Source of the DNA: an uncultured Eubacteriales bacterium
GTDB lineage: Bacteria > Acidobacteriota > Aminicenantia > Aminicenantales > Saccharicenantaceae
Assembly (NCBI GenBank): GCA_964551995.1
Contig: CAZKFD010000011.1
Location: 173,036 to 237,035, forward strand
Length of the DNA stretch: 64,000 bases
Direction of reading: 5' to 3'
Translations under genes and position numbers: made by a program
Notes under the pieces: generated by a model
Seen by the model: the letters and a program-made list of their open reading frames with translations, nothing else
What the model was told of the DNA's origin: nothing
Databases searched by the model: none
In this document: positions 3,055-52,276 of the stretch, one piece after another
Position numbering within the stretch: the stretch's first letter is position 1
How the letters are laid out: every line of letters begins with the position of its first letter

Positions 3055-3118
3055 GGCCGCATTCTATCAATAAAAAACAAGGAGGGACAGCCCCCGGGAA
3101 GCCTATCCGTCTTTTCGA

Positions 3119-14685: not shown

Positions 14686-16758
14686 ATGCGAACAAAATGG
14701 CTCTGTTGGCTCGGTTCGACCCTGATCATCCTATCGGCTTTGAGCTGCGGCGGTAGCAGTAGCAGCCCGACTCCGACCCCCACTCCCACCCCTCCGAGCG
14801 TGACGGTCAGCCCGGAGACGGCGACGCTGTCCCCGGGCGCGGCCCAGCAGTTCACGGCCACGATCGCGAACGCGACGGACCAGACGGTCAGCTGGGAAGT
14901 CAACAACGTCCAGGGCGGGAGCGCGACCTACGGACTGATCTCTGAAGGCGGCGTGTACATCGCCCCGACGAACATCTCGGGCTTGTCCAGCGTGACGGTG
15001 ACGGCCGTCTCCTTCGATGACCCCACGAAGACAGGGACCGCCACGGTGACCTTCCAATCGGGTTCGAGCGTCAAAGTGGTCATCGCCGCGAACGGAGCTC
15101 CCATCCCGGTCCTGACGTTCGGGTCGTACACCCTCTCCGCGACGGTCAGCGGGACTACCAATACGGCCCTCACCTGGCAGGTCAACGGCGTCACCGGAGG
15201 CGGCTCGACGACGGGCACGGTCACCCAGGCGGGGGTCTATTATGCGCCCCATTCGGTGCCGGTTTCCACGGCGGCGAACAACGACGGCCAGACGACCGAC
15301 GTGATTTTGACGGCGATTTCCCAGGCGGACACCACGGCCTCGGATTCGGTGATCGTCGTCCCGACCCCCCCGCAGACGTCGCGCTTCCCGCTGCCGGTCC
15401 CGCTCGGGACGTCCGGCGGAAATGCGCATGACTTGTCGACCTCCGGGAATTACACGTTCTGCTGCGGCGGGACCATCGGGTCGCTCGTGTCCCGGGGCGG
15501 TCAGCTGTACATCCTGAGCTGCAACCACGTCTTGGCCCGGAGCGACGCGGCCTCGATCGGCGACGCGATCATCCAGCCGGGGCTTATCGACAACAACTGC
15601 GCCGTTGCCGGCACGAACACGGTCGCGAACCTGTCGCAGTTCTTCAATCTGGAGACGGGCGCCCTGCCGAACGTGGATGCCGCGATCGCCGAAATCGTGT
15701 CCGGCGCCGTCGAGCCGCTGGGGACCATCCTCGAGCTGGGCGGCACGGCGAGCGGCAGCCAGCCGACCGACGGGACGCCCAATCCCGGACCGGGCGTGAC
15801 ACCCACGGTGGGACGCCCGGTTGCTAAGAGCGGGAGGTCGACGGGCCTGACCTGCTCTCAGATCACCTCCGTCAGCACGTCGATCAGCGTTGAATACCAG
15901 AAAGGATGCAATACGGGCTCGACCTACGACGTGGATTTCGACAATCAAGTCGACGTCAGCGGCGTGGGCTTCAGCGCCTTCGGCGACTCGGGCTCGCTCA
16001 TCGTCACCCAGGACACGTCGGACCCCGTCGGACTGCTCTTCGCCGGCTCCGATACGGACACGGTCGCCAATCCCCTGGACGACGTCCTCTCGCAACTCGC
16101 AGACCCGTCGACGGGGGAGAAGCCTGTTTTTGTCGGAGATTCGACGGTCGGAGCCCATGCCGTCGCCGCCTGCTCGATCCCCCAGCCCACGTCGTCCCTG
16201 GCCGTAATCCTGCAGGGGCAGGCGGCTTTGTCGAATCTCGCCCTGGAGGCCGCCACCGCGGCCCGCGACGCTCATGCCGAAGAGCTGATGACGGCGCACC
16301 CCGAGATCCAGGCTTTGGGCGTGGGCGCGAGCTGCGACAATCCCCGGGAGAGCGCCGTCCTTCTGTTCGTGCCGAAAGGGCCGTCCCATGCGGGTCTTCC
16401 ACCTCTCGTGGGCGGGATCCGCACGCGCATCGTCGAGGTCACCACGAACAGGATATCAGGCTCTCTCTCGGCCGAAGAGAGCTCCATCCTCATTCAGTCG
16501 GTGGCGCTGCCCCCGCTCGCCTACGCCATCTCCGAGGCCGAAGTGGAACGGGCGAAGGCGGTCCAATCGGCTCACCGGGATGCCCTGATGCGCCAGCACG
16601 GCGTCCAGGGCGTCGGCGTGACGTCGAGCCTGGATTCCCCAGGCGAGGCAGCGTTGATGATTTTCGTCATCCGCGGGGTCGCGCACGACCCGATCCCGCC
16701 GGTCATCGACGGCCTGCGGACCCGGATCCGCGAAACAAGCCGCTTCCGGGCCCGCTAG
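14686..16758 (+). CDS. secreted (lipoprotein-like) S1 family trypsin-like serine protease with PT linker and Ig-like domains
   Basis: The signal/lipobox-like LIILSALSCGG is followed by a (PT)n linker. CGGTIGS..LSCNHVLAR carries the catalytic His and GDSGSLIV the catalytic Ser. The ATG at 14686 follows a GAGGA RBS. Confidence 0.7.
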   Translation: MRTKWLCWLGSTLIILSALSCGGSSSSPTPTPTPTPPSVTVSPETATLSPGAAQQFTATIANATDQTVSWEVNNVQGGSATYGLISEGGVYIAPTNISGLSSVTVTAVSFDDPTKTGTATVTFQSGSSVKVVIAANGAPIPVLTFGSYTLSATVSGTTNTALTWQVNGVTGGGSTTGTVTQAGVYYAPHSVPVSTAANNDGQTTDVILTAISQADTTASDSVIVVPTPPQTSRFPLPVPLGTSGGNAHDLSTSGNYTFCCGGTIGSLVSRGGQLYILSCNHVLARSDAASIGDAIIQPGLIDNNCAVAGTNTVANLSQFFNLETGALPNVDAAIAEIVSGAVEPLGTILELGGTASGSQPTDGTPNPGPGVTPTVGRPVAKSGRSTGLTCSQITSVSTSISVEYQKGCNTGSTYDVDFDNQVDVSGVGFSAFGDSGSLIVTQDTSDPVGLLFAGSDTDTVANPLDDVLSQLADPSTGEKPVFVGDSTVGAHAVAACSIPQPTSSLAVILQGQAALSNLALEAATAARDAHAEELMTAHPEIQALGVGASCDNPRESAVLLFVPKGPSHAGLPPLVGGIRTRIVEVTTNRISGSLSAEESSILIQSVALPPLAYAISEAEVERAKAVQSAHRDALMRQHGVQGVGVTSSLDSPGEAALMIFVIRGVAHDPIPPVIDGLRTRIRETSRFRAR

Positions 16759-16793
16759 AGCCCTGGGGCCAAACGCGTCTGCCCGGCGCCCCG

Positions 16794-17783
16794 CTATTTC
16801 TTCATATCCTTGTCGAAAGCGACCAGGGAAGGCGAGAAGTTCATCCGGCGGACGAACTCGAGCGATTCCGCCGCGCCGAGCTCGCGGTCCATGGCGTTGT
16901 CCTCCCACTCGACCGAAAGCGGGCCTTCGTAGCCGATGGCGTTGAGCTCGCGGATGATGCCCTCGAAATCGACGTCGCCGTGCCCGAGAGACCGAAAGTT
17001 CCAGCCCCGGCGGACGTCGCCGAAGGCGAGGAAGGAGCCGAGGATCCCGGCCTTGCCGTCGAGCGTCACGGCCACGTCCTTCATGTGGACGTGGTAGACG
17101 CGGTCGGCGAACTCGCGGATAAAGAGAGGCGGCTCAAGGCCCTGCCAGACGAGGTGGCTGGGATCGAAGTTGAGGCCGAGGGTGAGCCTGCGGTTGAACG
17201 TCTCGAAGAGGCGGCAGGTCGTGTAGAGGTCGAAGGCGATCTCCGTCGGATGAACCTCGAGGGCGAATTTGACGCCTTGCTTGTCGAATTCGTCGAAGAT
17301 GGGCGTCCAGAGGTCGCGGATCTTTGCGTAGCCGGCCGCCACCATTTCCTCGGTCGTCGCCGGGAATGAGTACCAAGCCTTCCAGACGGGCGAGCCCATG
17401 AAGCCGTTGACGACGTAGCATCCCATGACTCGAGCCGCCCGGGCTACGGCCTTCATCTCCTCGACGGCCCACTTGCGGAGGGCGTCGGGCTTGCCGCGGA
17501 CCGCGGCCGGCGCGAAACCGTCGAGCCGGGGGTCGTATTCGTCGCCGACGCATTGGCCGGCGAGGTGGGCGCCGAACGCCCAGCACTTGAGACCGTACTT
17601 CTTAAGGACCCGCTTCTTCTCCCGGACATAGGCGGCGCTCGAGGCCGCTTTGCGGACGTCCATGTGATCGCCCCAGCAGGCGATCTCCAGGCCGTCGTAG
17701 CCCCAGCCGGAAGCCTTCTTGCAGATCTCCTCGAACGGCAGGTCGGCCCACTGGCCGGTGAACAGCGTGACAGGTCGTGCCAT
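16794..17783 (-). CDS. sugar phosphate isomerase/epimerase (xylose isomerase-like TIM barrel)
   Basis: The 329 aa product shows AP endonuclease 2 / xylose-isomerase-like fold features. A perfect AAGGAGG RBS precedes the start. Confidence 0.85.
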   Translation of the reverse strand: MARPVTLFTGQWADLPFEEICKKASGWGYDGLEIACWGDHMDVRKAASSAAYVREKKRVLKKYGLKCWAFGAHLAGQCVGDEYDPRLDGFAPAAVRGKPDALRKWAVEEMKAVARAARVMGCYVVNGFMGSPVWKAWYSFPATTEEMVAAGYAKIRDLWTPIFDEFDKQGVKFALEVHPTEIAFDLYTTCRLFETFNRRLTLGLNFDPSHLVWQGLEPPLFIREFADRVYHVHMKDVAVTLDGKAGILGSFLAFGDVRRGWNFRSLGHGDVDFEGIIRELNAIGYEGPLSVEWEDNAMDRELGAAESLEFVRRMNFSPSLVAFDKDMKK

Positions 17784-17798
17784 AATCGTTTCCTCCTT

Positions 17799-18974
17799 TT
17801 ATTCCATGCGGACCCAGGCGGCCCCTTCAGCTGAGCTTTCGACGCACTTCTCGATGAAGCAGACGCCGCGGACGCCGTCCTCGGCCCCTGGAAAATCGAG
17901 ATCATCGGCCGCAAGCGCTTCGCCCCGGAGCTTCTTGGCCAGGGCCGGAATAAAGGTCGAGTAGGTGTTGGCGAAGGCCTCGAAGTAGCCTTCGGGGTGC
18001 CCGGACGGGATGCGTGACAGGCTCTGGGCCCTGGGGGACATCGGGTCGCGGCCGCGCGACAGCATCGCCGTCGGCCGGTCCAGGCACGAGACGCGGGCGT
18101 TGTTCGGGAACTCTTGGAACCATTCGACCGCCCCCTCGACGCCGTAAATCCGGAGACGCAGGGCGTTGTCGTGGCCGATGGCAATTTGGGAGCTCCAGTA
18201 CACGCCCTTGGCCCCGCCCCGGTAGTTCACCATGATCGTGGCGTTGTCCTCGAGCGGCCGCCCGGCGCCGAAACGGTCGAGCCGGGCGCAGAGCGACTCA
18301 ATTCGCAGGCCGGTCATATAGCCTGCCATGAATTCGATGTGGCTGCCGATGTCGCCGACGCAGTTGGAGATGCCGGCGACCTTGGGGTTCGTCCGCGAGA
18401 GGGCCTGCTTCTGGCCCGTGTCCTCGAGTTTCGTTGCCAGCCATTCCTGGGGATACTCGGCGTTGATGAAGCGGATCGCGCCGATATCCCCTGAGGCGAT
18501 CATGTCCCGGATGTGCTTGACCATGGGGTAGCCTGCGTAGGCGTAGGTCACGCAGAACAACAGGCCCTTTTCCTTGGCGAGGCGGGCCAGGTGCGCCGCG
18601 TCCTCGGAGCTCGTCGCCAGCGGCTTTTCGCAGACGACGGGGAAGCCGTGCTCGAGGGCGGCCCGTGCGGCGGGGTAATGGGCGTTGTTTGTCGTGACGA
18701 CGACGATGAAGTTGGGCCGGTCGTCGCGCTTCGCCTCCGTGCGGATCATTTCCTCGAACGTGTGATAGAGGCGTTCTTTCGGGAGGTCCAACAGCCCTCC
18801 CGTGACCAGGGTGTTTTCATAAGATTGGGAGAAGCAGCCGCAGACGATGTCTGCCTTCCCGTCCATGGCGATGGCCTTGCGGTGGACGTCGCCGATGAAC
18901 GCCCCCTGGCCGCCTCCGATCATGCCGTAGCGAAGCTTCGGGGTCTTGGCTCCCGACGCCTGTCCTTCGATCAT
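17799..18974 (-). CDS. Gfo/Idh/MocA family oxidoreductase (cytoplasmic)
   Basis: The 391 aa product has the Rossmann motif YGMIGGGQGAFIG and the conserved EKP motif. It has no signal peptide. Confidence 0.85.
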   Translation of the reverse strand: MIEGQASGAKTPKLRYGMIGGGQGAFIGDVHRKAIAMDGKADIVCGCFSQSYENTLVTGGLLDLPKERLYHTFEEMIRTEAKRDDRPNFIVVVTTNNAHYPAARAALEHGFPVVCEKPLATSSEDAAHLARLAKEKGLLFCVTYAYAGYPMVKHIRDMIASGDIGAIRFINAEYPQEWLATKLEDTGQKQALSRTNPKVAGISNCVGDIGSHIEFMAGYMTGLRIESLCARLDRFGAGRPLEDNATIMVNYRGGAKGVYWSSQIAIGHDNALRLRIYGVEGAVEWFQEFPNNARVSCLDRPTAMLSRGRDPMSPRAQSLSRIPSGHPEGYFEAFANTYSTFIPALAKKLRGEALAADDLDFPGAEDGVRGVCFIEKCVESSAEGAAWVRME

Positions 18975-19126
18975 GGCTCACCTTCCTGCGGGATTTTTAC
19001 CACTATTGGCTCCGGCGATGCAAGCCTGTCCCCCAAGGACGGGACGGCCTTGGATAAGGAGCGGTCAAACCTGAGAGCGCTTGACGGGAATCTGCTGGTT
19101 TGACGCCTTCTTCGTTCTCCGGCGTC

Positions 19127-21183
19127 CTATCTTTTCGTGAGCGCCTGCCGGATCTGTTCCGTTGCCGTCTTGGCCTCGGCGGCGACGGACGGGTCCGACT
19201 CGAGCGACTCGGCCATCCGAAGGCCGGGCTCGCACGGGAAGCGCGGCAGCAGCCCCAGAACGAGCCTCCTTTCCTCGGGCCGTGTGCTCAGTGAGAGCGC
19301 CTGAGCGAGGTCGGCTACGGCGGCTTCGGGCTGCCTGTACGGTTCGAGTCCGACCATGCGGACAAAGGCCCGCAGGGAGAGGACTCTATATGTGAGATTG
19401 TCCGACTTGGCGGCGATGCCGAGGACGTCGTCGCGCGCCGAGACGTCGGGCCACTCGGCCAGGCCCCGCACCGCCGCGTCGACGATTTCCTTGTTCCGGT
19501 CGGCGAGGGCCCTCCGCATCGCCGGGAGGGCCGTGTCGTCTCCGATCTTGCCGAGAATACGGAGGAGGTCGGCCACGTGCCGCGGGTCCTTTTCGCTGGC
19601 GAGCAGGTTCTCGGCGGCTTCGCCGCGGGCAAGCGGTCTCGGGATTGTGAGGGCCAGTGAGGCCACGGCGTTTTGCATCTCTTCCCGAATGGTTTCGTCC
19701 TCGATCGTGAAGAGGAGCGCCAGAAGGCTCCTCAAATCTGCGGGCAAACAGACGTCTCCGAGAGCCCTGACGGCGCGGAGGCGGAGCGATGTCTCCGCCC
19801 CCGACCGGACGATCTCCATGAGCGCCGGCTTCGCGGCCGCGATCCGTCGTGCGTCGGCGGCCTGGATGAGCTCGGCCTTGATTCCGGCGTCGGGTTCCGT
19901 CCCCAGCAGCTCCAGGATCGCGGTATCGACGTCGGACCCTTTGAGCCGCGACAGGGCCACTCGGGCGAGGGCCTGCTCATCGCCCGTCGCCCGGGCGGCC
20001 CGGGACGCCAGCATCGCCACGGCCGTCGCGTTGCCGGCCTTGCCGATCGACCGCAATGCCTCCATCCGGACTTCCGGCGAGGAGCTGTCGGCGGCCTTCA
20101 CGAGCGAGGGGAGGACGATAACCGCCGGGTAGGACGCCAGGGCCGACGCGAGCTCGGCCTGCTGCGGTCCGGGGAGCTTGTCAAGGAACGGGAGCACGGC
20201 CGGGATCTCCGAGGCCTCGAAGACCTCCGGGATCAGTGAGACGGCCGGTGCATAAAGGATAGCGTCGCGCCCGGAGAGGGCGCTTATGATAAGCTTCACC
20301 TGGTCTGTCCTTCCGGCCGCCCGGACCCGCCCGCAGAAGGCGGCTTGGCGGTCGATGGCAGGCAGGGTCGTGGCGAACAGCTGCTCGTAAAGGCCTGCGG
20401 CTTCGTCCTTCTTCCCTTCCTTCAGCCGTTTCTCCGCGCACAGCAGGAGGGCCGAAGCGGCTTCGGCTTTGGGCTGGCCTTGGGCCGCGGCGAGTAAAGC
20501 CTCGAGGCCGCGGACGGCATCGGCCGTCCCGATCTTTCCCAGGGCCTCGACCGCACCGAGGGCGGTTTCAGGATCGCTTCCCTCGGCCAGGCGCCTCAGC
20601 GCCGGAACGGCCGCGGCGCACTCCCGGTCTCCGAGTGTCGAGACGATCCCCCGTCTGATGTCGTCCCTGGCTTTTCCTAGGGCCGACATCAGGGCCCGGT
20701 CGGCCTCGTCCCCGGGGATCTTTTCCAGGGCGTAGCGCGCCGGGTCCGTCGTTTCGGGATTGAGCAGCATCGCCTCGAGCACGGGGACCGACGCCGCGCT
20801 TCCGATGAGGCGCAGGGAGCGGCAGGCGGCTATCACGCCTCCGGGCGCGGGATGGGACCGCAGGAACGTTAGGAGCTTGGCCTCGCATTCCTTACGCGTC
20901 GCGGGGTTGTCCTTGTGCGCCAGGACATAGGCTCTCAGCCTCATGAGCGGGCCCACGCCCCGGTCGTAACGATACGCGGCGAGCTCCTTGAGGATCTGGT
21001 CCAGGGCATCATAGGTGAGGCCCATGGACTGTTTGACCTGCTTCGATTGCTGGGCCGAAGGCGCAGCCGGCGCGCCCGCGCCGCCCCCAGCCTGCGCGAG
21101 GAGGGGCAGACCCAGGAGGACGGCGATGGTGAAACAGGCGATTTTCCGCATCGGGCCATGATTCCTATGCCATGTTTTTCTCA
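19127..21183 (-). CDS. secreted HEAT/PBS-lyase repeat protein
   Basis: The internal start MRKTWHRNHGPMRKIACFTIAVLLGLPLLAQA follows a GGAGGA RBS 13 nt after the upstream stop. The product has many HEAT-like repeats and no CxxCH motif. Confidence 0.7.
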
Positions 21184-21195
21184 TCGGGGTCCTCC

Positions 21196-22542
21196 TCACT
21201 CGGGAAGCAGCCATGGCTTGCGGTACGCGTGGCTGAGAAGCCGTTCGGCCTCGGAGTCGTCGATGGTGGTTTCGGCTAGGGGATCCCAGCGGATCTTCCT
21301 CCCGACCTCCATGGCGATGACGCCGAGGTGGCCGACGCTGGCCGAGCGGTGGGCGGTCTCCGCCGGGGCGATGGTCAGGGCCCGGCTGCGGACGCAGTCG
21401 AGGAAGTTCTGCCAATGGTCCCGGCTTCTGTAAAGGCGGATGTCGCCGGGACCGACCGTCTCGCGCTTGAGGCTCTCCGGCTCCGTCTCGAACTGGCCGC
21501 GGTCAACCCAGATCCAGCCGTACTCGCCGATCCACTTCGTGCCGCTCCAGATCTCCTCGTATCCTCCGGCGATGATCATGGGCGTTCCGTCGGCATATTT
21601 GGCCTTCAGGTAATAGCGGGTCGGGCTGTTGTAGATGCCGCCCGTCGGAAACTCGCCCGTGCCTTCCATTTCCACCGGGCCGGTCGCGTCCCATCCCATG
21701 CCCCAGTGGGCGATGTCGACGTGATGGCCGACCCAGTCCATGAGCTGGCCGCCGCCGAAATCCATGTTCCAGCGCCAGTTCATGTGAACGCGGGCCTTGC
21801 AGTAGGGCCACCACGGCGCCGGGCCGATCCAGAAGTTATAGTCGAGGTTCGGCGGCGGGGGGACGAGCGCCTCCTGACCGAAGGTCCCGGCGAAATCGTA
21901 GTGGCCGGAGGGGAGCCCAACCTCGATCTTATTGATCTTCCCGATGCGGCCGTTGCGGACGAGCTCGGCGGCCTGGTGGAAATTCTCGACGGAGCGCTGC
22001 CAGGAGCCCGTCTGCCAGACACGGCCGTAGCGCTTCACAGCTTCGCACAGGGCGCGCCCCTCCCTCAGGTTGTGTGTCAGGGGCTTCTCGCCGTAGACGT
22101 CCAGTCCGGCACGCAGGGCGGAGATGGCCAGGATAGCGTGCCAATGGTCGGGAACTGCGAGCGACACGACGTCGAGGTCCTGGCGCTGGAAGAGCTCCCG
22201 GAAGTCGTGATAGGTCGCGCAGGCCGTGTTGCCGTACTTCTTGTTGACCGTGTCACGGGCCTCGGCCAGATGCTCGGCGTCGAGGTCGCAGACGGCGACC
22301 CACTGGACCTCGGGCTTTTCGAGGAAGCTCTGCATGTTGCCGGGGCCCATCATGCCGAAGCCGACGCCGGCCATGACGATGCGGTCGGAGGGAGCGACGG
22401 CGCCGCCCTTGCCGAGGGCCGCGGCCTTGACGATCGTCGGGAAGCCCAGGGCTCCCGCCGCCGCTGCCGCCGCGGCGCCGCCCCCGATCGCAGCGGTGCG
22501 GAGGAATTGCCTGCGGTTCATTTTGGCGCGCTTTTCACTCAT
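21196..22542 (-). CDS. TAT-exported Gfo/Idh/MocA family oxidoreductase
   Basis: The TAT signal is MNRRQFLRTAAIGGGAAAAAAAGALG. It has an NAD-binding fold. Confidence 0.85.
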   Translation of the reverse strand: MSEKRAKMNRRQFLRTAAIGGGAAAAAAAGALGFPTIVKAAALGKGGAVAPSDRIVMAGVGFGMMGPGNMQSFLEKPEVQWVAVCDLDAEHLAEARDTVNKKYGNTACATYHDFRELFQRQDLDVVSLAVPDHWHAILAISALRAGLDVYGEKPLTHNLREGRALCEAVKRYGRVWQTGSWQRSVENFHQAAELVRNGRIGKINKIEVGLPSGHYDFAGTFGQEALVPPPPNLDYNFWIGPAPWWPYCKARVHMNWRWNMDFGGGQLMDWVGHHVDIAHWGMGWDATGPVEMEGTGEFPTGGIYNSPTRYYLKAKYADGTPMIIAGGYEEIWSGTKWIGEYGWIWVDRGQFETEPESLKRETVGPGDIRLYRSRDHWQNFLDCVRSRALTIAPAETAHRSASVGHLGVIAMEVGRKIRWDPLAETTIDDSEAERLLSHAYRKPWLLPE

Positions 22543-34085: not shown

Positions 34086-35705
34086 TCACCAGAAGATGAT
34101 GTTCAGGAGGACGGCGACGAGGATCGCCACGGCCCCCCAGACCGCGGGCCGGGCGAACCACCTCGCCGCCGCCTTCACGCGGGGGGTCAGGCCGAACACG
34201 AGGCCCCTGAGATCCTCGGGATTCCGCCTTGCCGTGAAGAGGCTGACCCCGATCGTCATCACGAAGTCCGCGAGCCAGGCCCACCAGGCCTGGTAGAAGT
34301 TCGCGGCCATGTCGCTTGCGTAATGCAGGACGCCGGCCTTGAAGGCGACGTAGTGGCCGGCGGCCGTCAGGATGCCGAAGAGAAGCCCGAAGAACCCGCC
34401 CCACGCCGTGGCCCCGGCCCAGAACATCCCGAGGAGGAAGGTGGCGAAGAGCGGCGCGTTGAAGAAGGAGAAGACGAGCTGCATGTAATCCATGAGGTTG
34501 GGAAACGACCGAACGATATAGGCCGTGCCGACGCTGATAAAGACGCCGAAGACGGTCGCGTACTTGCCCATGTTCAGATAGTGGGAATCGGGCTTGCCTC
34601 TCCGGATGTACGTCCCGTAGATGTCGTAGGTCCAGATCGTGTTGAAGGCCGTGACGTTGCCGGCCATCCCGGACATGAAGCTCGCCAGGAGGGCGGTGAT
34701 GGCCAGCCCGAGGACGCCGTTGGGCAGGTAGTGCTTCATCAGCAGGATGAGCGCGGAGTTGTATTCCGCCGTGCGGCCGACGGCCTGGCTGAACTCCGGC
34801 AGGACGATGAGAGCCACGAGGCCCGGGATGACGACGATGATCGGAACGAGCATCTTGGGAAACGAGGCGATGATCGGCGTCATGCGGGCCGAGTTGATGT
34901 TCTTCGAGGCCAGCGCCCTCTGGACGACCAGGAAGTCCGTCGTCCAGTAGCCGAACGACAGGACGAATCCCAGGCCGAAGACGACGCCGAACCAGTCGAC
35001 GCCGAGCGGGTTGTTGCTCGTGCCGAGGAACTTGATCGAATGGAGCAGCGGCTCCTTGAGCCTGGCCGCGAATCCCGCGACGCCCCCGACCTCCCGGAGG
35101 CCGAGGAAAACGATCGGCAGGAGGCCGAGCCAAATGAGGAAGAACTGGATGACCTCGTTGTAGATCGACGAGGACAGGCCTCCCCAGAAGACGTAGATGA
35201 GGACCACGGCGGCGGCGAAGAGGATGCTCCCGGTGAGCGACCAGCCGAGCATGAGCTTGAAGAGGAGGGCCATGGCGTAGAGGCTGATGCCGCTCATGAG
35301 GACCGTCATGACGGCGAAGGAGATCGCGTTCAGGCCGCGCGTGGCCTCGTTGTAGCGGAGCTTGAGGTATTCGGGGACTGTCCTCACCCGGCTCCCGTAG
35401 TAGAAGGGCATCATGAAGATCCCCAGGAAGACCATGGCCGGGATGGCCCCGACCCAGTAGAAATGGACCGTGGTGATGCCGTACTTGGCCGAGTTGGCCA
35501 CCATCCCGATGACCTCCAGGGCGCCCAGGTTGGCCGACAGGAAGGCGAGGCCCGTGATCCAGCCCGGGAGCGACCGGCCCGAAAGGAAGAAGTCCTCCCC
35601 GGTCTTCATGTACTTCTTGAGGGAGTAGCCAACGAGGATCATGACCAGGATGTAACCGGCGATGATGGCGTAATCGACGGCGTTGAGGACGATGATCGGA
35701 TGCAT
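34086..35705 (-). CDS. sodium:solute symporter family (SSS) transporter
   Basis: The 539 aa product has about 13 TM segments and typical SSF motifs. It is the correct frame inside a 1122 aa antisense artefact ORF. Confidence 0.85.
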
Positions 35706-35788
35706 CTCCTTCTCCTTTCCTCGAGGGAGCCGTCCGGAGACCGGCGCGGAGCGGGCGGCGACCGTCCCCGCCCCGTCCGCGGCAGAAC

Positions 35789-35817
35789 ATATAACACAGG
35801 AGAATTCGGGCTGTCAA
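35789..35817 (-). promoter_or_regulatory. candidate sigma70 promoter (TTGACA-17-TTATAT) for the SSS symporter
   Basis: On the minus strand, TTGACA is at 35812-35817 and TTATAT at 35789-35794, in the divergent intergenic region. Confidence 0.35.
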
Positions 35818-35937
35818 AAGGGCGCGTTGCCGACTCGCGGACGTTCGAGGAGGGGCCTTCGGCGCGGGGCCCGGGCCGGCGCCGTGCCGGTGAGAAAATC
35901 CTCGCCGCGGGACGTTCCCTTTCTTGAGGAGCCCCAA

Positions 35938-36975
35938 ATGGCTGGAGAGACGCCCGCGAAGACCCCCCCGGGGGCAGGGAACGACGACGGGTATCCCGCG
36001 GCCGCCGTCCGCCCCTTTTTGGGGTCGGCCCCGTCGGTCGAAAAAATCCGGGTCATGATTGAAAAGGTGCGGGATACCGACGCCCCGGTGTTCATCCTCG
36101 GCGAGAGCGGGACGGGAAAGGAGCTCGCCGCCCGGACGATCCACGAGACGGGCGCGCGCCGGGCCGGTCCGTTCGTCGCCGTCAACTGCGGGGCCATCCC
36201 CGAGAGCCTGCTCGAAAGCGAGCTCTTCGGCCACGCCCGGGGCGCGTTCACCGGGGCCTTCCGGGACAAGCCCGGCCTCGTCGAAGAAGCCGCCGGAGGG
36301 ACGTTCTTTCTCGACGAGGTCGGCGACCTGCCGTTCGGCCTCCAGGCCAAGCTCCTTCGGCTTCTCGAGGAGCGGACGATCCGCAGGGTCGGGGAGACGC
36401 GGGTCCGGACCGTCGATGTCCGCTTCATCAGCGCCACGAACAAGGACATCGATCATGAGGTCGCCCGCGGGAACTTCCGTGAGGACCTCTACTACCGGCT
36501 CAAGATCATCCCGATCGAGCTCCCGGCGCTCCGGGAGAGGCGGGAGGACATCGTCGTGCTCCTCAACTACTTCGTGGGCGAGTACGCGCGGCGCATGCGG
36601 CGACCGCGGCCCCATTTCTCGCCGCGGGCGCTCGAGCTCCTGACCGGCTATTCCTGGCCCGGCAACGTTCGCGAGCTCCAGAACGAGGTCCAGCGCTGCC
36701 TCGTCATCGCCGGGCTCAGCCCGATGATCCGGGAGGATTTCCTGTCCCCGAAAATCAACCCGGGAGGGGAGGAGTATACGCCGTCTTCCCATCTTCTGGC
36801 CGGGGCCCGGGCCGAGTTCGAAAAAAGGTTCCTCCGGGAGGCCCTGGCCCGTTGCAACTTCCACCGCAGCCGGACGGCCGCGGAGATCGGCCTTACGCGC
36901 CAGGGGCTGTTCAAGCTGCTCAAAAAGCACAATATCCGGCCGGGGAGCCCGGAGCCGGCAAAAGAAACGTCGTAG
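35938..36975 (+). CDS. sigma-54-dependent transcriptional activator (AAA+ EBP + Fis-type HTH) lacking a sensory/receiver domain
   Basis: The product has the GESGTGKE Walker A, ESELFGH and GAFTGA motifs and a C-terminal HTH. A GAGGAG RBS lies 6 nt before the ATG at 35938. Only about 35 aa precede the AAA+ domain. Confidence 0.8.
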
Positions 36976-42009: not shown

Positions 42010-43872
42010 TCAGGAGACGATAATGATGGCCTCGCCGGCGACGGCGTCGAACCGGCAGACTTCAAAGCACGAACGGCACTTGATGCACTTGCTTTGGTCA
42101 AGATTGTGAGGCTGGGACCTCGGCCCCGTAATGGCTCCCGTAGGGCACACCTTGACGCACATCCGGCAGCCCGTGCACCGCTCGGGGATGATGCGGAAGG
42201 TGATCAACTCGCGGCAAACGGCCGCCGGGCAGCGTTTGTCCACGACGTGGGCGATGAATTCGGAGCGGAAATACCGCAATGCGGTCAAGACCGGGAGGGG
42301 AGCCGTCTGTCCCAGGCCGCAGAGCGAGCTATTCCTCACGATATTCGCGAGCTTCTCCAGCCGGGTCAAGTCCTCTTCGCTGGCTTTCCCGGAAGCGATC
42401 TTGTCGAGGAGGCCGACCATGTGCCGCGTGCCGACCCGGCAAGCGACGCACTTGCCGCACGATTCGCCCTGGACGAACGACAGGAAGACGCGCGACGTGT
42501 CAACCAGGCAGGTGTCTTCGTCCATAACCAGAATCCCGCTCGAGCCCATGATTGTGCCCGCGGCGCGCAGGGAGTCGAAGTCGAGCGGCGTTTCGATCTT
42601 GCTGCCCGGCAGGAACCCTCCCGACGGCCCGCCCGTTTGAACGGCCTTGAGCGCTTTCTTTCCCGTAATGCCGCCGCCGATCTCATAGATCAGGCTCGAA
42701 AGCGCAGTCCCCATGGGCACTTCCACGATCCCGGAGTTGGCGATCTTCCCCGTCAAAGCGAAGACGGCTGTTCCCCGGCTCGTTTCCACGCCTGTGGAAG
42801 AGAATCCGTCTGCCCCGTCGGCGATGATCGAGGGGACACAGGCCAGAGTCTTGACGTTGTCGATGATGGTCGGTCTCCCCCAAAGCCCCTTTTCTGCGGG
42901 AAACGGTGGCCGGGGCTGGGGCATGCTCCTCGAGCCCTCGAGGGAGCCCAGGAGGGCGGTCTCCTCGCCGGAGACGAACGTCCCGCCGCCTTCGAAAATT
43001 TCGGCGTCGAAATCGAAGCTCGAATCGAGAAGACCTTTCCCGAGATATTTCTTTTCGAGGGCCTGCTCGAGGGCAATGCGGGTCCGCCGCGCGGCCAAGG
43101 AGTATTCTGCGCGGCAGTAAATATATCCCTGGCCAGCGCCCACAGCGTAGCCGAGGAGAGCGAGCCCTTCGATGACCGTGTGGGGGTCCGCTTCGAGCAG
43201 GCTGCGGTCCATGAAGGCGCCGGGGGAGCTCTCGTTGGCGTTGCAGATGACGTACTTCTCGTCCCCCGGCTGCCGGCGACAGACGTCCCACTTGTACCAA
43301 GTGGGGAATCCAGCCCCGCCTCTCCCGCGGAGGCCGGACCGCTTGACCTCATTGACGACTTCCTCCGGCGTCATCGATGAGACGGCCTTCCGCAGAGCCC
43401 GGTAGCCGCCCCGGGCCTCATAGTCCGCGATCCTCTCCGGATTGATCAGGCCGCAGTTGCGGAGGATGATCCTCTTCTGCTTCTTGTAAAAGACGATGTC
43501 CCCGTAGCGCGGGACGATCTCTTTCGTGACCGGGTGGCGATAGAACAGTCGCTCAACGGGCGCTCCTCCGAGGAGATGGGACTCGGCGATATCCTTGGCG
43601 TCCCCGGGCTTAACCCGGCAATAGAAGATCCCCTCAGGCTCGACGACGACGATCGGGCCGATCTGGCAGAATCCGTGACACCCGGTGAAACTGACTTCGA
43701 CCTTGTCCCGGAGGCCCAGCCTTCCGACCTCATCCTCCAGGGCGGCCCTGATCTCGGCTGAACTGGAGGACAGGCAGGCGGTACTCTCACAGACGAGGAC
43801 TTTCGTTTTATCCACGGCGGGCTTCTCCCTCGAAGCGCCTCCTTTCCCGGACTTCGGCCGGGCGGCGCTCAT
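42010..43872 (-). CDS. NuoF/HydB-like NADH-binding flavoprotein subunit (51 kDa) with N-terminal thioredoxin-like 2Fe-2S and C-terminal 2x[4Fe-4S] domains
   Basis: The internal start MSAARPKSG.. follows GGAGGAG and overlaps the NuoE-like stop (ATGA). GRGGAGFPT is the FMN site. The C-terminus has CxxCxxCxxxCP ferredoxin motifs. Confidence 0.85.
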   Translation of the reverse strand: MSAARPKSGKGGASREKPAVDKTKVLVCESTACLSSSSAEIRAALEDEVGRLGLRDKVEVSFTGCHGFCQIGPIVVVEPEGIFYCRVKPGDAKDIAESHLLGGAPVERLFYRHPVTKEIVPRYGDIVFYKKQKRIILRNCGLINPERIADYEARGGYRALRKAVSSMTPEEVVNEVKRSGLRGRGGAGFPTWYKWDVCRRQPGDEKYVICNANESSPGAFMDRSLLEADPHTVIEGLALLGYAVGAGQGYIYCRAEYSLAARRTRIALEQALEKKYLGKGLLDSSFDFDAEIFEGGGTFVSGEETALLGSLEGSRSMPQPRPPFPAEKGLWGRPTIIDNVKTLACVPSIIADGADGFSSTGVETSRGTAVFALTGKIANSGIVEVPMGTALSSLIYEIGGGITGKKALKAVQTGGPSGGFLPGSKIETPLDFDSLRAAGTIMGSSGILVMDEDTCLVDTSRVFLSFVQGESCGKCVACRVGTRHMVGLLDKIASGKASEEDLTRLEKLANIVRNSSLCGLGQTAPLPVLTALRYFRSEFIAHVVDKRCPAAVCRELITFRIIPERCTGCRMCVKVCPTGAITGPRSQPHNLDQSKCIKCRSCFEVCRFDAVAGEAIIIVS

Positions 43873-44340: not shown

Positions 44341-45687
44341 TCATCCTCCTCTCGAGGACGATTTTTTCGATTCCGGGGGGACGGGCTCGGGGCGCCCCTT
44401 TCGATAATAGATGTCCCTCAGGCTTTCGATTCGGCCGGGAGAGAGAAACACGCAATCCGCGATCTTGGCTCTCGCATGGGCCACATCGCCCGCATGGCTC
44501 CGGCAGGTCGGCGCCCCGCAGAGCCCGCAGTTCAGCCCCGCGAGGGACCTCAGCAGCTCGGCTGTCCGATTTTTCCTGGCGACCCTCTCGCGCAGGTCAA
44601 CTTCTTTTCCCTCGATGTCTCGTGGTCTTAAGGGGGCCCTCAACGAGAAATCCTCGGAGGCGCGTCGCCGCCCGACCTCCCTGATGAACTGGCGAGACGG
44701 GCGAGGCAGGCTCGAAATCAACTGGAGATTCCGGCTGCGGGCGACGTAGAGGTTCTCGACCGTGAGATTGCCGCCGATGCACCCTCCCTGGCAGGCGTGG
44801 CACTCCAGGAAATCGATGTTGCGGATTTTTCCCTTCTCGATGTCGCCGAAGACCTTGATGATGTCGGAGAGGCCCTGGAGGGGAAGGTAATGCTCTTTGG
44901 AGAGGTTCGGGAATTCGCCTTCCGGTGCGCCCCAGTGGAACCATTCGCTGGAGCCCGTCGCATTCGCCGCGCATTCGTCTTTCTCGGGGTTCCGGCGCAG
45001 GATGGCCAGGAGATCGTTGTAGATCTGGGAAATGCCGACGGCTCCGTCCAGGTAGCTTCCGGCGCCTTCCGCCGGCTCAAGGATCGAGATCGTCTTCGCC
45101 TGGCACGGCGTGATATAGATAGCGGCAATGTCCTCCGGCTTCAGGCCCAGCTTCTGCGAATACCGGCGCTTCACCTCGCGTCCCGCGATCTCCCGCGGCG
45201 ATTCAATGCGGATCAGCTGGTCGACGAGGCTAGGATAAGCGACCTGGACGAGGCGCACGACGACCGGGCACGAGTTGGAGATCAGGGGAAACGGGCCGGG
45301 CCACTTTCTCACGTCATCGCGGATGGCCAAATTGACGAGCTCGAGATCCACCGCATATTCCCAGACGGCATCGAAGCCGAGACCCAAGAGGGCCTGGTTC
45401 ACGCGCCCCGGCCTCTCCATCAACGAGAATTGGGTGTAGAGAGCCGGGGAGGCCACGGCGACTTTGAACTTAAACCTGTCCAACTCCGCGAAGCTGATCG
45501 TAGTCGCCGAGATGGCGCCCGACGGACAGACCCCGAGGCAGGAACCGCAATCGATGCAGAGCTCAGAAATGACTGTCGCCTTGCCCTTTTTCACCCTGAT
45601 GGCCTGCGTCGGGCAGGTACGCATGCAGGCCATCCGGCCCTCGCATTTCTCGGCGTCGATCCGGAAACCGTGTTTCAGCTCATTCAT
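44341..45687 (-). CDS. putative sensory [FeFe]-hydrogenase-like protein (HydS-like; 2x[4Fe-4S] ferredoxin + H-cluster-like domain + C-terminal Cx2Cx4Cx16C)
   Basis: It starts with CEGRMACMRTCP and CIDCGSCLGVCP ferredoxin motifs. H-cluster-like motifs follow: L1 SNSCP (TSCCP with the first Cys replaced by Ser), L2 ITPCQAK and L3 ECHACQGGCIGG. The C-terminus NCGLCGAPTCRSHAGDVAHARAKIADC is an exact Cx2Cx4Cx16C motif. At 448 aa it is too short and too divergent to be a catalytic HydA. Confidence 0.75.
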   Translation of the reverse strand: MNELKHGFRIDAEKCEGRMACMRTCPTQAIRVKKGKATVISELCIDCGSCLGVCPSGAISATTISFAELDRFKFKVAVASPALYTQFSLMERPGRVNQALLGLGFDAVWEYAVDLELVNLAIRDDVRKWPGPFPLISNSCPVVVRLVQVAYPSLVDQLIRIESPREIAGREVKRRYSQKLGLKPEDIAAIYITPCQAKTISILEPAEGAGSYLDGAVGISQIYNDLLAILRRNPEKDECAANATGSSEWFHWGAPEGEFPNLSKEHYLPLQGLSDIIKVFGDIEKGKIRNIDFLECHACQGGCIGGNLTVENLYVARSRNLQLISSLPRPSRQFIREVGRRRASEDFSLRAPLRPRDIEGKEVDLRERVARKNRTAELLRSLAGLNCGLCGAPTCRSHAGDVAHARAKIADCVFLSPGRIESLRDIYYRKGRPEPVPPESKKSSSRGG

Positions 45688-46462: not shown

Positions 46463-47878
46463 TCACGTCTGTCCGGTCAGGTATTGATGGATGGAGGCCG
46501 CGGCGATCCTCCCGTCCCCCATGGCGCTGATCACCGTGGCTGCGCCCCTGACAACGTCGCCCCCCGCCCAGACGCGGGCCTTGGACGTCCGGGCTGTCGC
46601 GGGGTCGGTCACGATCCCGCCCTTGCGGTTGACCTCCAGGCCCGGTGTCGTCATGGGGAGGAGAGGGTTGGGGCTGTTGCCGATAGCGATGACGACGGCG
46701 TCCACCGGCATGCGGAAATTCGAGCCTTCGATGGGGATCGGCTTTCTCCTCCCCGAATCGTCCGGCTCCCCCAGAGTCATCTCCAGGCATTCCATCTCTT
46801 TGAGCCATCCGGTCTCGTCGCCGATCAAGCGGACCGGCAGGGTGAGGAGGTTGAAAATAACGCCCTCCTCCTCCGCGTTCTCGGCCTCTTCTGCCCGTGC
46901 CGGGAGCTCCGTCCGGCTCCGGCGGTAGACGAGATGAACCTCGTCGGCGCCGAGGCGGATGGCCGTCCGGGCGGAGTCCATGGCCACGTTCCCGCCGCCG
47001 ACGACAGCCACGCGGGACCGCCGTTTGACCGGCGTGCCGTATTCGGGGAACCGATAGCCTTTCATCAGGTTCACGCGGGTGAGGTACTCGTTGGCGGAGT
47101 AGACCCCGTTGAGGTTCTCGCCCGGAATGTCCATGAACCAGGGAAGACCCGCGCCGGCCCCGGCGAAGAGGGCGTCGTATTCCTCGAGGAGCCGGTCGAC
47201 CGTTTTGGTCGTGCCCACGATGAAATCCATCCTGATCCTGGCCCCCAGTCTCTGAACGTAATCCACTTCTCGCTGAACGATCGCCTTAGGAAGTCTGAAT
47301 TCAGGTATTCCGTAGACCAAGACCCCACCGCACTCGTGAAGGGCCTCGAAGATGGTCACATCGTGGCCCAGAATGAGGAGATCGTTGGCTACGGTGACGC
47401 CGGCCGGGCCCGCCCCGACGATGGCCACTTTTTTTCCCGTCTTAGAGGCCTTCTCCGGCATCTCGAGTTTTCCCGAGGCCGCCTCCCAATCGGCCAAGAA
47501 ACGCTCCAACCGGCCGATGGCCAAAGGATCCCCCTTCTTGCCGACGACGCACATCTTCTCGCACTGCTCTTCCTGGGGGCAGACGCGACCGCAGATGGCC
47601 GGCAACGCGTTGGTCTGCTTGATCTTGCGGATGCCTGCGGCGAATTCACGCCCGACGATGTGCCGGATGAAGCCCGGAATATCGATCCCCACGGGACACC
47701 CTTGCTGGCACAAAGGGTTCTTGCAGTCCAGGCACCTCGAGGCTTCCTCGACGGCCGTTTCGATGGGATATCCCAGAGCGACCTCGTCGAAGTTCTTGAT
47801 CCTTTCCAGGTGGTCCTGCTTCGGCATGGGCCGGCGCTTCACGTCCAATATCCTCTTGGCCGGCTTTTCTTCCGCCAT
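46463..47878 (-). CDS. NfnB/GltD/SudA-like NAD(P)H-binding FAD/FeS oxidoreductase (glutamate synthase small-subunit-like)
   Basis: The internal start MAEEKPAKRIL.. at 47878 lies 14 nt after the upstream stop. CLDCKNPLCQQGCPV and CGRVCPQEEQCEKMC are two [4Fe-4S] sites. VAIVGAGPAG is the FAD site and VAVVGGGNVAMD the NAD(P) site. Confidence 0.85.
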   Translation of the reverse strand: MAEEKPAKRILDVKRRPMPKQDHLERIKNFDEVALGYPIETAVEEASRCLDCKNPLCQQGCPVGIDIPGFIRHIVGREFAAGIRKIKQTNALPAICGRVCPQEEQCEKMCVVGKKGDPLAIGRLERFLADWEAASGKLEMPEKASKTGKKVAIVGAGPAGVTVANDLLILGHDVTIFEALHECGGVLVYGIPEFRLPKAIVQREVDYVQRLGARIRMDFIVGTTKTVDRLLEEYDALFAGAGAGLPWFMDIPGENLNGVYSANEYLTRVNLMKGYRFPEYGTPVKRRSRVAVVGGGNVAMDSARTAIRLGADEVHLVYRRSRTELPARAEEAENAEEEGVIFNLLTLPVRLIGDETGWLKEMECLEMTLGEPDDSGRRKPIPIEGSNFRMPVDAVVIAIGNSPNPLLPMTTPGLEVNRKGGIVTDPATARTSKARVWAGGDVVRGAATVISAMGDGRIAAASIHQYLTGQT

Positions 47879-47891
47879 GTCCGGCACCTTC

Positions 47892-48731
47892 TCAAAAATG
47901 AGTCGCGGCGCTGCTCCGGCGAAGCGGGTCGATCTCTTCGAGATTGTAGCTCTTGCGCCGCGCCAGAAATTCCGGCCAGTCGATCTCATGCCCGTCGAAA
48001 TCGGGACCGTCGACGCAGGCGAACTTCATTTTCCCGCTGACCGAAAGCCGGCAGACGCCGCACATCCCCGTCCCGTCGATCATGATGGGGTTCATACTGA
48101 CGGTCGTCTTCCAGCCCAACGGTTTGGTCAATTCCGAAGTCCGCATCAGGAGAAACGTGCATCCGTTGACGATGACCAGATTGGGCGTGATCCCAGCCTC
48201 CTCCATCATAGCGGGCATCCTGTCGATATGCCCCTTCCGGCCCTTGGTCCCATCCCGGGTGACGACGAAGACGCCGTCCGAGGTTTCGGCCAGCTTCTCT
48301 TCCCAATAGAGCAAATAGGCGGCGCGGGCTTCGAGGAAGGCGTAGACCCTGTTTCTGGCTTTCTTCAGGGCCCGGGCGATCGGATAGATTGAGCCGATGC
48401 CGTAGCATCCGCCCACGCACAGGACCGTGCCGAAGTTGTCGATGAGGGTCGGCTTGCCCAATGGGCCAGCATAGGTCGGAATGAACTCTCCCGGCTTCAG
48501 CCGGGCCAGCCTGGCGGTCGAGCCGCCGACCTGCATGAAGATGGAGGTCACTGTGCCGGCCTGCCGGTCCCAGTCTGCCACGGAGAGGGGGATCCGCTCG
48601 CCGAGCTCGTCCGGCCGGACGATGACGAATTGACCCGGCCGTATGGACTCCGCCACCTCCGGGGCACGAACAGTGAGCTCGTGCAGATTGGGAACAATCA
48701 TCCGGCGCTCGATCACGTCGTACATGCCCAT
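47892..48731 (-). CDS. NfnA/PyrK/SudB-like FAD + [2Fe-2S] ferredoxin-NAD(P) reductase subunit
   Basis: The 279 aa product has the C-terminal GMCGVCRL...FACVDGP 2Fe-2S motif of the PyrK/NfnA family. Confidence 0.8.
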   Translation of the reverse strand: MGMYDVIERRMIVPNLHELTVRAPEVAESIRPGQFVIVRPDELGERIPLSVADWDRQAGTVTSIFMQVGGSTARLARLKPGEFIPTYAGPLGKPTLIDNFGTVLCVGGCYGIGSIYPIARALKKARNRVYAFLEARAAYLLYWEEKLAETSDGVFVVTRDGTKGRKGHIDRMPAMMEEAGITPNLVIVNGCTFLLMRTSELTKPLGWKTTVSMNPIMIDGTGMCGVCRLSVSGKMKFACVDGPDFDGHEIDWPEFLARRKSYNLEEIDPLRRSSAATHF

Positions 48732-51622: not shown

Positions 51623-52162
51623 TCAATAGAGTTCGGTCAAGCCAACGTCGGCGAGGACGATCCCCTGGCAAAAATCCACGGAACGGCGCAACGTGCAGGG
51701 AACAACGATGATCTTCTTATTCGGGTCCACGAGGTCCGCGTTGAAGTATTCGTTCAGGGCCCAGATGCTTTCCTCCGAGACGCACGTTCCCCGCTCGTGC
51801 GAGGAGTCGGCGCAGAGAGCGACATAAACCCAGGTCTTCCACTCCGGATCCGCGGCGCCGCTCTTGAAGACCCCGCAGTCCGGATCGCATCGCCAGCAAA
51901 GCATCAAAGCCATGAGCTCCTTGAGGGGGACTTCCCTCGAGCACTTCTTGCACTTGAGGTCGAACTTGACAGCCTGGGAGCTCCCCAGGTAACTCCAGAT
52001 ATGGTCCCCTTGCTGATAGTGATCGACCGGCGGAACCGGCTCTTCGGAAAAGAATGAGATTCGGTGACGGCACTGGAAGCAGCCCTCGGTGACCAGATAG
52101 CCACTCCGGACGTTGACCATCTCCCATCTGTGTTGGCACAAGCCTCTTACCGTCGTGTTCAA
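51623..52162 (-). CDS. Cys-rich hypothetical protein (multiple CxxC/CxxxxC pairs; zinc-ribbon-like), first gene of the redox operon
   Basis: The 179 aa product has 12 Cys, including CFQC, CKKC and CWRCDPDC. The start is uncertain: the ORF-track start is a TTG at 52162, with an in-frame ATG at 52120. GC content is lower than in its neighbours. Confidence 0.4.
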   Translation of the reverse strand: MNTTVRGLCQHRWEMVNVRSGYLVTEGCFQCRHRISFFSEEPVPPVDHYQQGDHIWSYLGSSQAVKFDLKCKKCSREVPLKELMALMLCWRCDPDCGVFKSGAADPEWKTWVYVALCADSSHERGTCVSEESIWALNEYFNADLVDPNKKIIVVPCTLRRSVDFCQGIVLADVGLTELY

Positions 52163-52276
52163 GGCCCTGGACCGCCAAGAATTCTGCGCTCGATTCTTAT
52201 AGAACTATACAGACGCCCCGCTTTCTTGTCAAGAAAACGGATTACTCTCCGGGAGTCATTCAAGGCTGCGGCCGGG

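Follow-up and report, generated by a model that had tools for sequence, protein, structure and literature searches.

In our study, a 64-kb stretch of DNA (contig CAZKFD010000011.1; the window, at its full length of 64,000 nucleotides) was analysed around a reverse-strand gene for a protein of 448 amino acid residues, HydS, which, judged from its sequence relationships, very probably belongs to group D (M2e type) of the [FeFe]-hydrogenases. HydS is best understood as one part of a package in which the group D protein would sense H2 or the redox state and, with a small GHKL ATPase and two DRTGG-domain proteins as partners, would regulate the NuoEF-based redox complex encoded in the same operon; the probability of this reading is put at about 0.6. 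Within its group HydS is an ordinary member, as the short form without a PAS domain and the missing cysteine of the proton relay are defining group traits. The protein itself adds little: databases contain thousands of members of its family, and the model enzyme of that family has been under study since 2019. A modest added value lies in the four-protein cassette with its natural fusions, in the association of this cassette with a NuoEF complex which is not a hydrogenase, and in the residue variants R18, S139 and H297.

HydS and its H-cluster motifs

An earlier annotation made from the letters alone (the sequence-only reading) had described the 448-residue open reading frame (ORF) as carrying the three H-cluster motifs L1 to L3 and an exact Cx2Cx4Cx16C tail, and the ORF and all these motifs were recovered. 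L1 reads SNSCP (residues 137-141, S137-N-S139-C140-P), L2 reads ITPCQAK (residues 192-198, with I192, T193, C195 and K198) and L3 reads ECHACQGGCIGG (residues 295-306, with E295, H297, C299 and C303). The tail is C387-x2-C390-x4-C395-x16-C412, with the stop codon 36 residues past the last cysteine. Two ferredoxin motifs had also been assigned to the N-terminus; the second is complete (C44xxC47xxC50xxxC54P), whereas the first, C15xxR18xxC21xxxC25P, has an arginine in place of its second cysteine (codon 45634-45636, reverse strand). The PAS domain was rightly described as absent, since the Pfam scan (E <= 0.01) found none in HydS while the same scan detected the PAS domain of a control relative. 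At residue 384 (44536-44538, reverse strand) the window encodes Gly (LAGLNCG), and the database twin P0001, reported to be 100% identical, has Val (LAVLNCG).

The PDB matches to HydS were led by [FeFe]-hydrogenases, namely HDCR HydA2, T. kivui HydA1, the D. desulfuricans enzyme and CpI (phmmer, E 5e-18 to 1e-14), with 7qv7_D, 8a6t_A and 1hfe_L aligning at E 5e-18 to 6e-16. In these phmmer alignments to solved [FeFe]-hydrogenases SNSCP pairs with TSCCP, ITPCQAK with MPCxxK and the L3 segment with ExMxCxxGCxxG, all in register, so the segments are homologous H-cluster motifs and not a chance resemblance; the alternative outcome allowed for in the sequence-only reading, that they do not correspond to such motifs, did not arise. 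The four cysteines C140, C195, C299 and C303 match the H-cluster ligands of the solved enzymes, and the pocket residues K198, P141 and E295 are kept. Further, an AlphaFold2 model built from 71 homologues (predicted local distance difference test, pLDDT, 79.5; predicted template-modelling score, pTM, 0.80) returned [FeFe]-hydrogenases as all of its top 50 PDB folds (E ~1e-16, query-normalised TM 0.51-0.59). The core is thus a true H-domain homologue by Pfam, by PDB alignment, by the four ligating cysteines and by its predicted fold. From its residues HydS could most likely accommodate an H-cluster together with three accessory clusters, of which one would have a three-cysteine site.

Placement of HydS in group D

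Group D (M2e) proteins are defined by an F-domain, an H-domain and a C-terminal Cx2Cx4Cx16C motif without a PAS domain, and their hallmarks are a non-conserved Cys299, which is 'mostly' Ala, and Ser or Thr in place of Met353 (PMC8163306, PMC10407848, PMC13104023). The sole characterised member is TamHydS of Thermoanaerobacter mathranii (WP_013150113), for which low activity and a relatively high H2 affinity have been reported and a function as a sensor was suggested (PMC8163306, PMC10407848, PMC13104023), and this enzyme assembles the H-cluster (PMC6984386, PMC8163306). The earlier annotation was mistaken in taking the PAS domain as a feature of the known HydS proteins, as the group defined without it in these three papers includes TamHydS, an example named in that annotation itself.

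The TamHydS sequence was taken from the supplementary information of PMC6984386, which contains slips of optical character recognition (434 vs 435 residues); it was checked against the published residue numbers, two slips were corrected and one residue between positions 290 and 378 is still uncertain. The alignment of HydS with TamHydS proved collinear, with 36% identity over 424 residues (E 5e-80, 242 bits). The identity is 26% (108 bits) with the PAS-bearing M2f-type protein of locus L069, used as a stand-in for group C, and 17-21% (E ~1e-16 to 1e-18) with group A structures. The placement comes from such pairwise and profile similarity, and NCBIfam holds no group D-specific model. Its group A and B1 models score HydS at 90-102 bits against cutoffs of 406-450, and the group A hallmarks are replaced by SNSCP, T193 and H297.

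At the level of single residues, S139 of HydS stands at the Cys299 position of group A enzymes, where TamHydS has A137, and H297 stands at the Met497 position, where TamHydS has Leu. The Met353 position carries a hydroxyl residue in both proteins (Ser in TamHydS, T193 in HydS), and the Lys358 equivalent is K198. E252 and E289 of TamHydS correspond to E258 and E295, so HydS retains the proximal residues of the proton path that has been proposed for group D. The other pairs are, with TamHydS given first, K126 and K128, E122 and D124, C379 and C387, C404 and C412, and D393 and D401 and D403 and D411, the last two being further group D hallmarks that HydS retains. In contrast, D378, one of the charged residues near the accessory clusters, is replaced by N386. 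The two proteins are alike in length class (435 and 448 residues), in domain order, in having no PAS domain and no Cys at the Cys299 position, and in the small histidine-kinase-like ATPase that flanks the gene of TamHydS as well. On the other hand, TamHydS has C17 in its first ferredoxin motif where HydS has R18, and its operon partner is HydABC, whereas the window operon has a NuoG-like/NfnAB-like complex and is without an AraC regulator, a PHP-domain protein and a second ATPase.

Group C (M2f) proteins including TmHydS share with HydS the N-terminal two-cluster domain, an H-domain without the group A proton pathway, the Cx2Cx4Cx16C tail and a presumed regulatory role, but they carry a PAS domain after the tail motif. 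Group A enzymes (CpI, DdHydAB and HydA of HydABC) have in common with HydS the H-cluster ligands, the register of L1 to L3, Lys358 and the fold. In comparison, HydS has a smaller H-domain, replacements at Cys299, Met353 and Met497 and an extra C-terminal cluster domain, and by analogy with TamHydS its turnover would be expected to be orders of magnitude lower.

Two further identities, a misannotated RnfB-type subunit and a truncated PAS-type HydS of group C, are barely credible. The label 'RnfB' is given by JGI to P0001 and many relatives, and PF04060 and Fer4 are common to RnfB; however, the RnfB model TIGR01944 reaches 45 bits against a cutoff of 68.7 and covers residues 10-64 only, and the domain order is reversed, with a 230-residue H-domain lying between Fer4 and PF04060, which rules this identity out. 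Truncation would fit the cluster motifs at the N- and C-terminus that group C also has (PMC8163306), but it was rejected on the normal stop codon, the nuoE start 1 nucleotide further on and the equal length of hundreds of orthologues. HydS is moreover far closer to TamHydS than to the PAS-bearing protein.

Family spread and residue variation

A word-indexed search gave 2023 HydS-related proteins at E <= 1e-10; the best 120 of these are 66-100% identical, and those among them with names belong to Candidatus Aminicenantes and to related uncultured phyla. An exhaustive search of 50%-identity representatives yielded 271 clusters at E <= 1e-30, and a scan of one genome per species with a single pattern, derived from a 9-sequence alignment, found a HydS relative in at least 591 species. 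One database representative, P0139, has 4122 residues and aligns with HydS over 13 distinct stretches, which could mean either a giant repeat protein or an artefact of assembly.

The Cys-to-Ser change at the proton relay, to which the sequence-only reading had drawn attention, is present but it is not special to this protein. Among 129 diverse representatives the Cys299 column holds A in 40, S in 27, F in 17, T in 14, Y in 6 and H in 5 and never Cys, and Ser is found in 116 of 120 close-clade sequences. As Ser is the second commonest residue of the family and nearly constant in the clade, the change is the normal family state and not an anomaly. In HydS numbering, C140 and C195 are invariant in the same representatives, C299 and C303 are present in 127 and the tail cysteines in 126-127 of them.

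The arginine at position 18 is a rarer feature than Ser139. Cys occupies this position in 109 and Arg in 3 of the 129 diverse representatives, and in the close clade the counts are 90 for Arg and 25 for Cys out of 120 sequences. We equate position 18 with CpI Cys150, which binds the distal cluster FS4B. The exposed N-terminal cluster of the HydS clade is probably a three-cysteine site, either of the [3Fe-4S] type or with a non-cysteine ligand. R18, which is specific to the clade, and the conserved residues Ser139 and His297 occur as natural variation and bear on the mutational work in progress on group D active sites.

The HydS sequences of 81 loci split into two sub-types. The Bacillota (TamHydS-type) sub-type has, in HydS numbering, C18, A139, S255, E258, D271, E400, R43 and K59. 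The non-Bacillota sub-type (Aminicenantes, Planctomycetota, Eisenbacteria, Acidobacteriota, Calditrichota, Ignavibacteria and Bacteroidota) is 29-38% identical to TamHydS and varies at precisely these positions; the residues published as 'group D conserved' therefore mostly describe the Bacillota branch. HydS of the window falls in the divergent non-Bacillota branch, and its subclade retains the proximal glutamate E258.

The HydS-ATPase-DRTGG cassette

The gene neighbourhood was surveyed in 81 loci from Bacillota, Acidobacteriota, Planctomycetota, Aminicenantes, Bacteroidota and other phyla, with ORFs called in each locus and labelled by phmmer using the window proteins as queries. The recurrent order is DRTGG1, GHKL ATPase, HydS and DRTGG2. 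Within 1.5 kb of HydS the ATPase gene is found in 78 and a DRTGG gene in 79 of the loci, and within 10 kb NuoE occurs in 52 and NuoF in 55. The DRTGG2 gene follows HydS directly in most other lineages, and in the window it lies near the operon head instead. The overlap of the gene with that of a GHKL ATPase, noted earlier from the letters, is real: the end of the ATPase gene overlaps the HydS start by 8 nucleotides (ATGAATGA), and the DRTGG1 gene in turn overlaps the ATPase start by 4 nucleotides. Across 69 orthologues of the ATPase, conservation of the N-box (E51/N55), G1 box (D80xGxG84) and G2 box (G107xGxGxG113) is 100%. Each of the two DRTGG proteins has an invariant serine, S35 in DRTGG1 and S33 in DRTGG2.

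Natural fusions of three kinds connect the same proteins. The ATPase domain (HATPase_c) is fused to HydS in P0151, and a DRTGG domain is fused to HydS in seven representatives, N-terminally in P0130 and P0206 and C-terminally in P0133, P0160, P0198, P0200 and P0244. DRTGG1 and the ATPase are fused in six loci (L011, L012, L015, L021, L028 and L051), as ORFs of 232-270 residues just upstream of HydS. None of the long family members carries a PAS domain.

Because of the translational coupling in the window and the fusions in other lineages, the cassette ATPase and the two DRTGG proteins are proposed as the output partners of HydS, which is most likely what they are. The functional link to the adjacent kinase-like ATPase suggested by the sequence-only reading is supported by the near-constant proximity of the two genes and by the P0151 fusion, and signalling through such an adjacent histidine-kinase-like ATPase had already been raised for TamHydS (PMC8163306). 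The literature searched for DRTGG proteins with hydrogenases, or for HydS with a histidine-kinase-like ATPase, gave nothing beyond Land et al. 2020. The authors of the TamHydS work ask how a HydS without a PAS domain passes on its signal, and the near-universal synteny and the three kinds of fusion name concrete interaction partners for it.

The cassette ATPase is similar to SpoIIAB/RsbW, the anti-sigma serine kinases of partner-switching modules, in its size of 146 residues, in its best sequence match (1th8) and in its intact N, G1 and G2 boxes. It differs in scoring 48 bits against the NCBIfam equivalog cutoff of 135, in an operon without STAS or sigma factor genes and in having a hydrogenase-like protein and the DRTGG proteins as its constant partners. 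A PHP-domain protein of ~240 residues comes after the cassette in 58 of 82 loci, which belong to Bacillota and Acidobacteriota, and in these loci a second HATPase_c protein of ~185 residues lies beyond NuoE. In L026, for example, these two ORFs lie at 2519-3232 and 4413-5006, and in L014 they are fused (510 residues).

The operon and its redox complex

HydS is encoded in a run of ten head-to-tail genes on the reverse strand, in the order U179, DRTGG2, NuoG-like, NfnA-like, NfnB-like, DRTGG1, ATPase, HydS, NuoE and NuoF (Table 1). The nuoE start codon (ATG) lies 1 nucleotide past the HydS stop, with its GAGGAGG ribosome-binding site inside the 3' end of the HydS gene. For NuoF the likely start is the ATG at 43872, in an ATGA overlap with nuoE, within a maximal ORF reaching to 43992; the L082 orthologue likewise overlaps by 4 nucleotides. 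The NfnB-like ORF extends to 47989, and its true start is probably near 47878. The candidate promoter upstream of U179 is a consensus match alone, with 2 such sites in the region against 1.5 expected.

Table 1. Features of HydS and its operon in the window (aa, amino acids; FAD, flavin adenine dinucleotide; FMN, flavin mononucleotide; NAD(H) and NADP(H), nicotinamide adenine dinucleotide and its phosphate).
Feature	Positions	Strand	Basis
HydS, putative group D (M2e-type) sensory [FeFe]-hydrogenase	44341..45687	(-)	ORF, ATG start, 448 aa; Pfam Fer4 + Fe_hyd_lg_C + PF04060
N-terminal ferredoxin-like F-domain of HydS, aa 9-60	45508..45663	(-)	Pfam Fer4 dicluster
H-domain of HydS, aa 76-306	44770..45462	(-)	Pfam Fe_hyd_lg_C, E 1.7e-25
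C-terminal [4Fe-4S]-type motif domain of HydS, aa 382-414	44446..44544	(-)	Pfam PF04060 'FeS', E 6.5e-9
SpoIIAB/RsbW-like GHKL ATPase, 146 aa	45680..46120	(-)	Pfam HATPase_c; PDB anti-sigma F 1th8, E 9.6e-10
DRTGG-domain protein 1, 114 aa	46117..46461	(-)	Pfam DRTGG; conserved synteny
DRTGG-domain protein 2, 108 aa	51279..51605	(-)	Pfam DRTGG below curated cutoff; orthologue positions in 81 loci
Candidate sigma-70-like promoter upstream of U179	52204..52232	(-)	TTGACA-17-TATAGT, 11/12 consensus matches
U179, Cys-rich, 179 aa, first operon gene	51623..52162	(-)	No Pfam or NCBIfam match
NuoG/BfuA-like FeS subunit, degenerate molybdopterin domain, 835 aa	48757..51264	(-)	Pfam; NCBIfam NuoG 279 bits, under cutoff
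NfnA/SudB-like FAD/NAD-binding FeS subunit, 279 aa	47892..48731	(-)	NCBIfam NF004862, 315 bits > cutoff 220; Pfam DHODB_Fe-S_bind
NfnB/GltD-like NADPH-dependent FeS flavoprotein	46463..47989	(-)	TIGR01316, 572 bits > cutoff 472; Pfam Fer4_20 + Pyr_redox_2
NuoE/HydC-like [2Fe-2S] subunit, 156 aa	43869..44339	(-)	Pfam
NuoF/HydB-like FMN/NADH-binding subunit	42010..43872	(-)	Pfam Complex1_51K + NADH_4Fe-4S + Fer4

From its subunit sequences the NuoEF complex of the window appears to be of the flavin electron-bifurcating type, with NuoG-like and NfnAB-like subunits, and not a hydrogenase. No HydA or other H-domain ORF besides HydS was found in the 64-kb window. The 835-residue protein was considered as a formate dehydrogenase, FdsA (6tg9) being the closest match in the PDB, and rejected, since the segment 'VCHSP' with the catalytic Cys-His aligns to 'I-ELGG'. 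It scores under both the NuoG and the Fdh cutoffs of NCBIfam, and on sequence grounds it is assigned as a NuoG/BfuA-like electron-transfer subunit. U179 is conserved only in loci with the NuoG-like/NfnAB-like partner; its invariant residues are H11, W13, C28, C31, C71, C74, C96 and C165, which include two CxxC pairs, and it apparently substitutes for the PHP protein and the second ATPase that other lineages have.

The same set of ten genes is present in L001 to L006, L082 and L083, and the NuoG-like/NfnAB-like partner occurs in these loci, in L011, L015, L021 and L056 and in the window. Elsewhere the partner of NuoE/NuoF is HydA in Bacillota, an HdrA-like flavoprotein in Acidobacteriota and a split Fdh-like protein in two loci. 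The HdrA-like flavoprotein (583-594 residues, motif CSRVCCMY) was seen after NuoF in L010, L013, L014, L017, L018 and L027. The cassette-adjacent, group A-type HydA of the Bacillota loci L019, L022, L051, L055, L069 and L073 reads ITSCSPGW or FTSCSPGW at L1 instead of TSCCP, with canonical L2 and L3, possibly through a register shift. In L001 (a 4.28-Mb contig with a HydS 69% identical to that of the window) a full Mbh/Mrp-type group 4 membrane-bound [NiFe] hydrogenase cluster with HycI lies directly after HydS, at 11431-21290.

With HydS as the only H-domain protein encoded in the window, it has to be asked whether it works as a hydrogenase module docked on the NuoEF/NuoG-like/NfnAB-like complex, coupling the oxidation or evolution of H2 to NAD(P)(H) and ferredoxin, while the ATPase and DRTGG proteins would serve in regulation or assembly. 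The BfuA slot is held by a NuoG-like protein which has neither an H-domain nor the catalytic residues of formate dehydrogenase, the hydS gene lies, with almost no spacing, between the nfnB-like gene and nuoE, and this arrangement is found again in at least 12 loci of several phyla. A plug-in module would also fit the company of NuoEF with varied partners (HydA, HdrA-like or split Fdh-like), and TamHydS catalyses the reaction in both directions (PMC8163306). However, in ~27 loci a true HydA is encoded alongside, so a group D catalyst is not needed there, and the activity of TamHydS is 4-5 orders of magnitude under that of group A, whose proton pathway is missing (PMC10407848). The constant SpoIIAB-like ATPase and DRTGG company, including the fusions, is moreover typical of regulatory modules. 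Hence, a catalytic role of this kind is considered rather unlikely.

Proposed function and points against it

In the preferred sensor reading, HydS would bind H2 and turn it over slowly at the H-cluster, by analogy with TamHydS. It would serve as an H2 or redox sensor and not as a bulk catalyst. It is without the group A proton pathway and has Ser replacing Cys299. The reaction with H2 would shift the redox or conformational state of HydS; in TamHydS, secondary-structure changes and stabilised reduced states have been observed under H2 (PMC13104023, PMC8163306). The ATPase and DRTGG proteins, presumably bound to HydS in a physical complex, would read this state and in turn adjust the NuoEF complex or the expression of its genes, phosphorylation being a possible means.

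A comparable but unrelated arrangement (see also PMC8163306) is the regulatory [NiFe]-hydrogenase HoxBC/HupUV with the kinase HoxJ/HupT, where a low-activity hydrogenase likewise acts as the H2 sensor controlling a kinase. It has another metal site and fold and works with a PAS histidine kinase and a response regulator, whereas the partner in the window is a 146-residue SpoIIAB-like GHKL protein without a dimerisation/His domain, together with the DRTGG proteins.

The sensor reading has to be weighed against a number of contrary points. The sensory role of group D is itself putative only, the group being called 'functionally undefined' in PMC11216029, and the C-terminal cluster of TamHydS showed no change of redox state with H2 (PMC13104023). 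The HydS clade is 31-37% identical to TamHydS-type enzymes, and several positions described as conserved in group D differ between TamHydS and HydS, namely the outer proton-path residues (S249 to P255 and D265 to Q271), the charged residues at the accessory clusters (R42 to L43, K58 to I59 and E392 to G400) and the F-domain ligand C17 (R18). The PHP phosphoesterase and the second ATPase are absent from the window and its clade, and Pfam and NCBIfam show no operon gene for a sigma factor, a STAS protein or a DNA-binding regulator. Further, hydE, hydF and hydG were found neither among the 40 Pfam-profiled ORFs of the window nor in the flanks of the related loci L001, L082 and L083, and a literature search for Aminicenantes with HydEFG or HydG gave nothing beyond Land et al. 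2020.

The lack of hydEFG in the window and in the inspected flanks would suit a HydS which, like eukaryotic Nar1/NARFL, retains the cysteines yet has [4Fe-4S] clusters only; without an H-cluster it would report the redox state of ferredoxin or NAD(P)H to the ATPase and DRTGG proteins and would not sense H2. The divergence of the clade in second-sphere residues, the loss of one F-domain ligand and an operon partner which is not a hydrogenase point in the same direction. However, maturase genes are usually unlinked, so their absence from 64 kb says little, and the four H-cluster cysteines, K198, P141, E295 and the glycine-rich L3 are kept across hundreds of species. The homologue TamHydS assembles the H-cluster, as cited above, and the group 4 [NiFe] hydrogenase downstream of HydS in L001 indicates an H2-metabolising context. 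An H-cluster-free HydS is on this evidence improbable, and the H-cluster site of HydS is probably occupied.

The sensor reading may tentatively be taken one step further. The cassette could be a general H2-responsive control or H2-input module for NuoE/NuoF (Bfu-type) bifurcating complexes, whatever their catalytic subunit; in the window, an Nfn-like NAD(P)H/ferredoxin transhydrogenase-type enzyme would then be under H2 control or coupled to H2, and the fusions would mark out the ATPase and the DRTGG proteins as the long-sought partners through which PAS-less HydS gives its signal output. As the cassette also accompanies NuoEF complexes which are not hydrogenases, its role, if H2 sensing is true, would widen from the control of hydrogenases to redox balancing.

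Other genes of the window

Two further genes of the window showed no link to the operon. One of them (35683-36975, forward strand) encodes a sigma-54 enhancer-binding protein and the other (10622-13300, reverse strand) an 892-residue multihaem cytochrome of the MtrC/c7-like kind.

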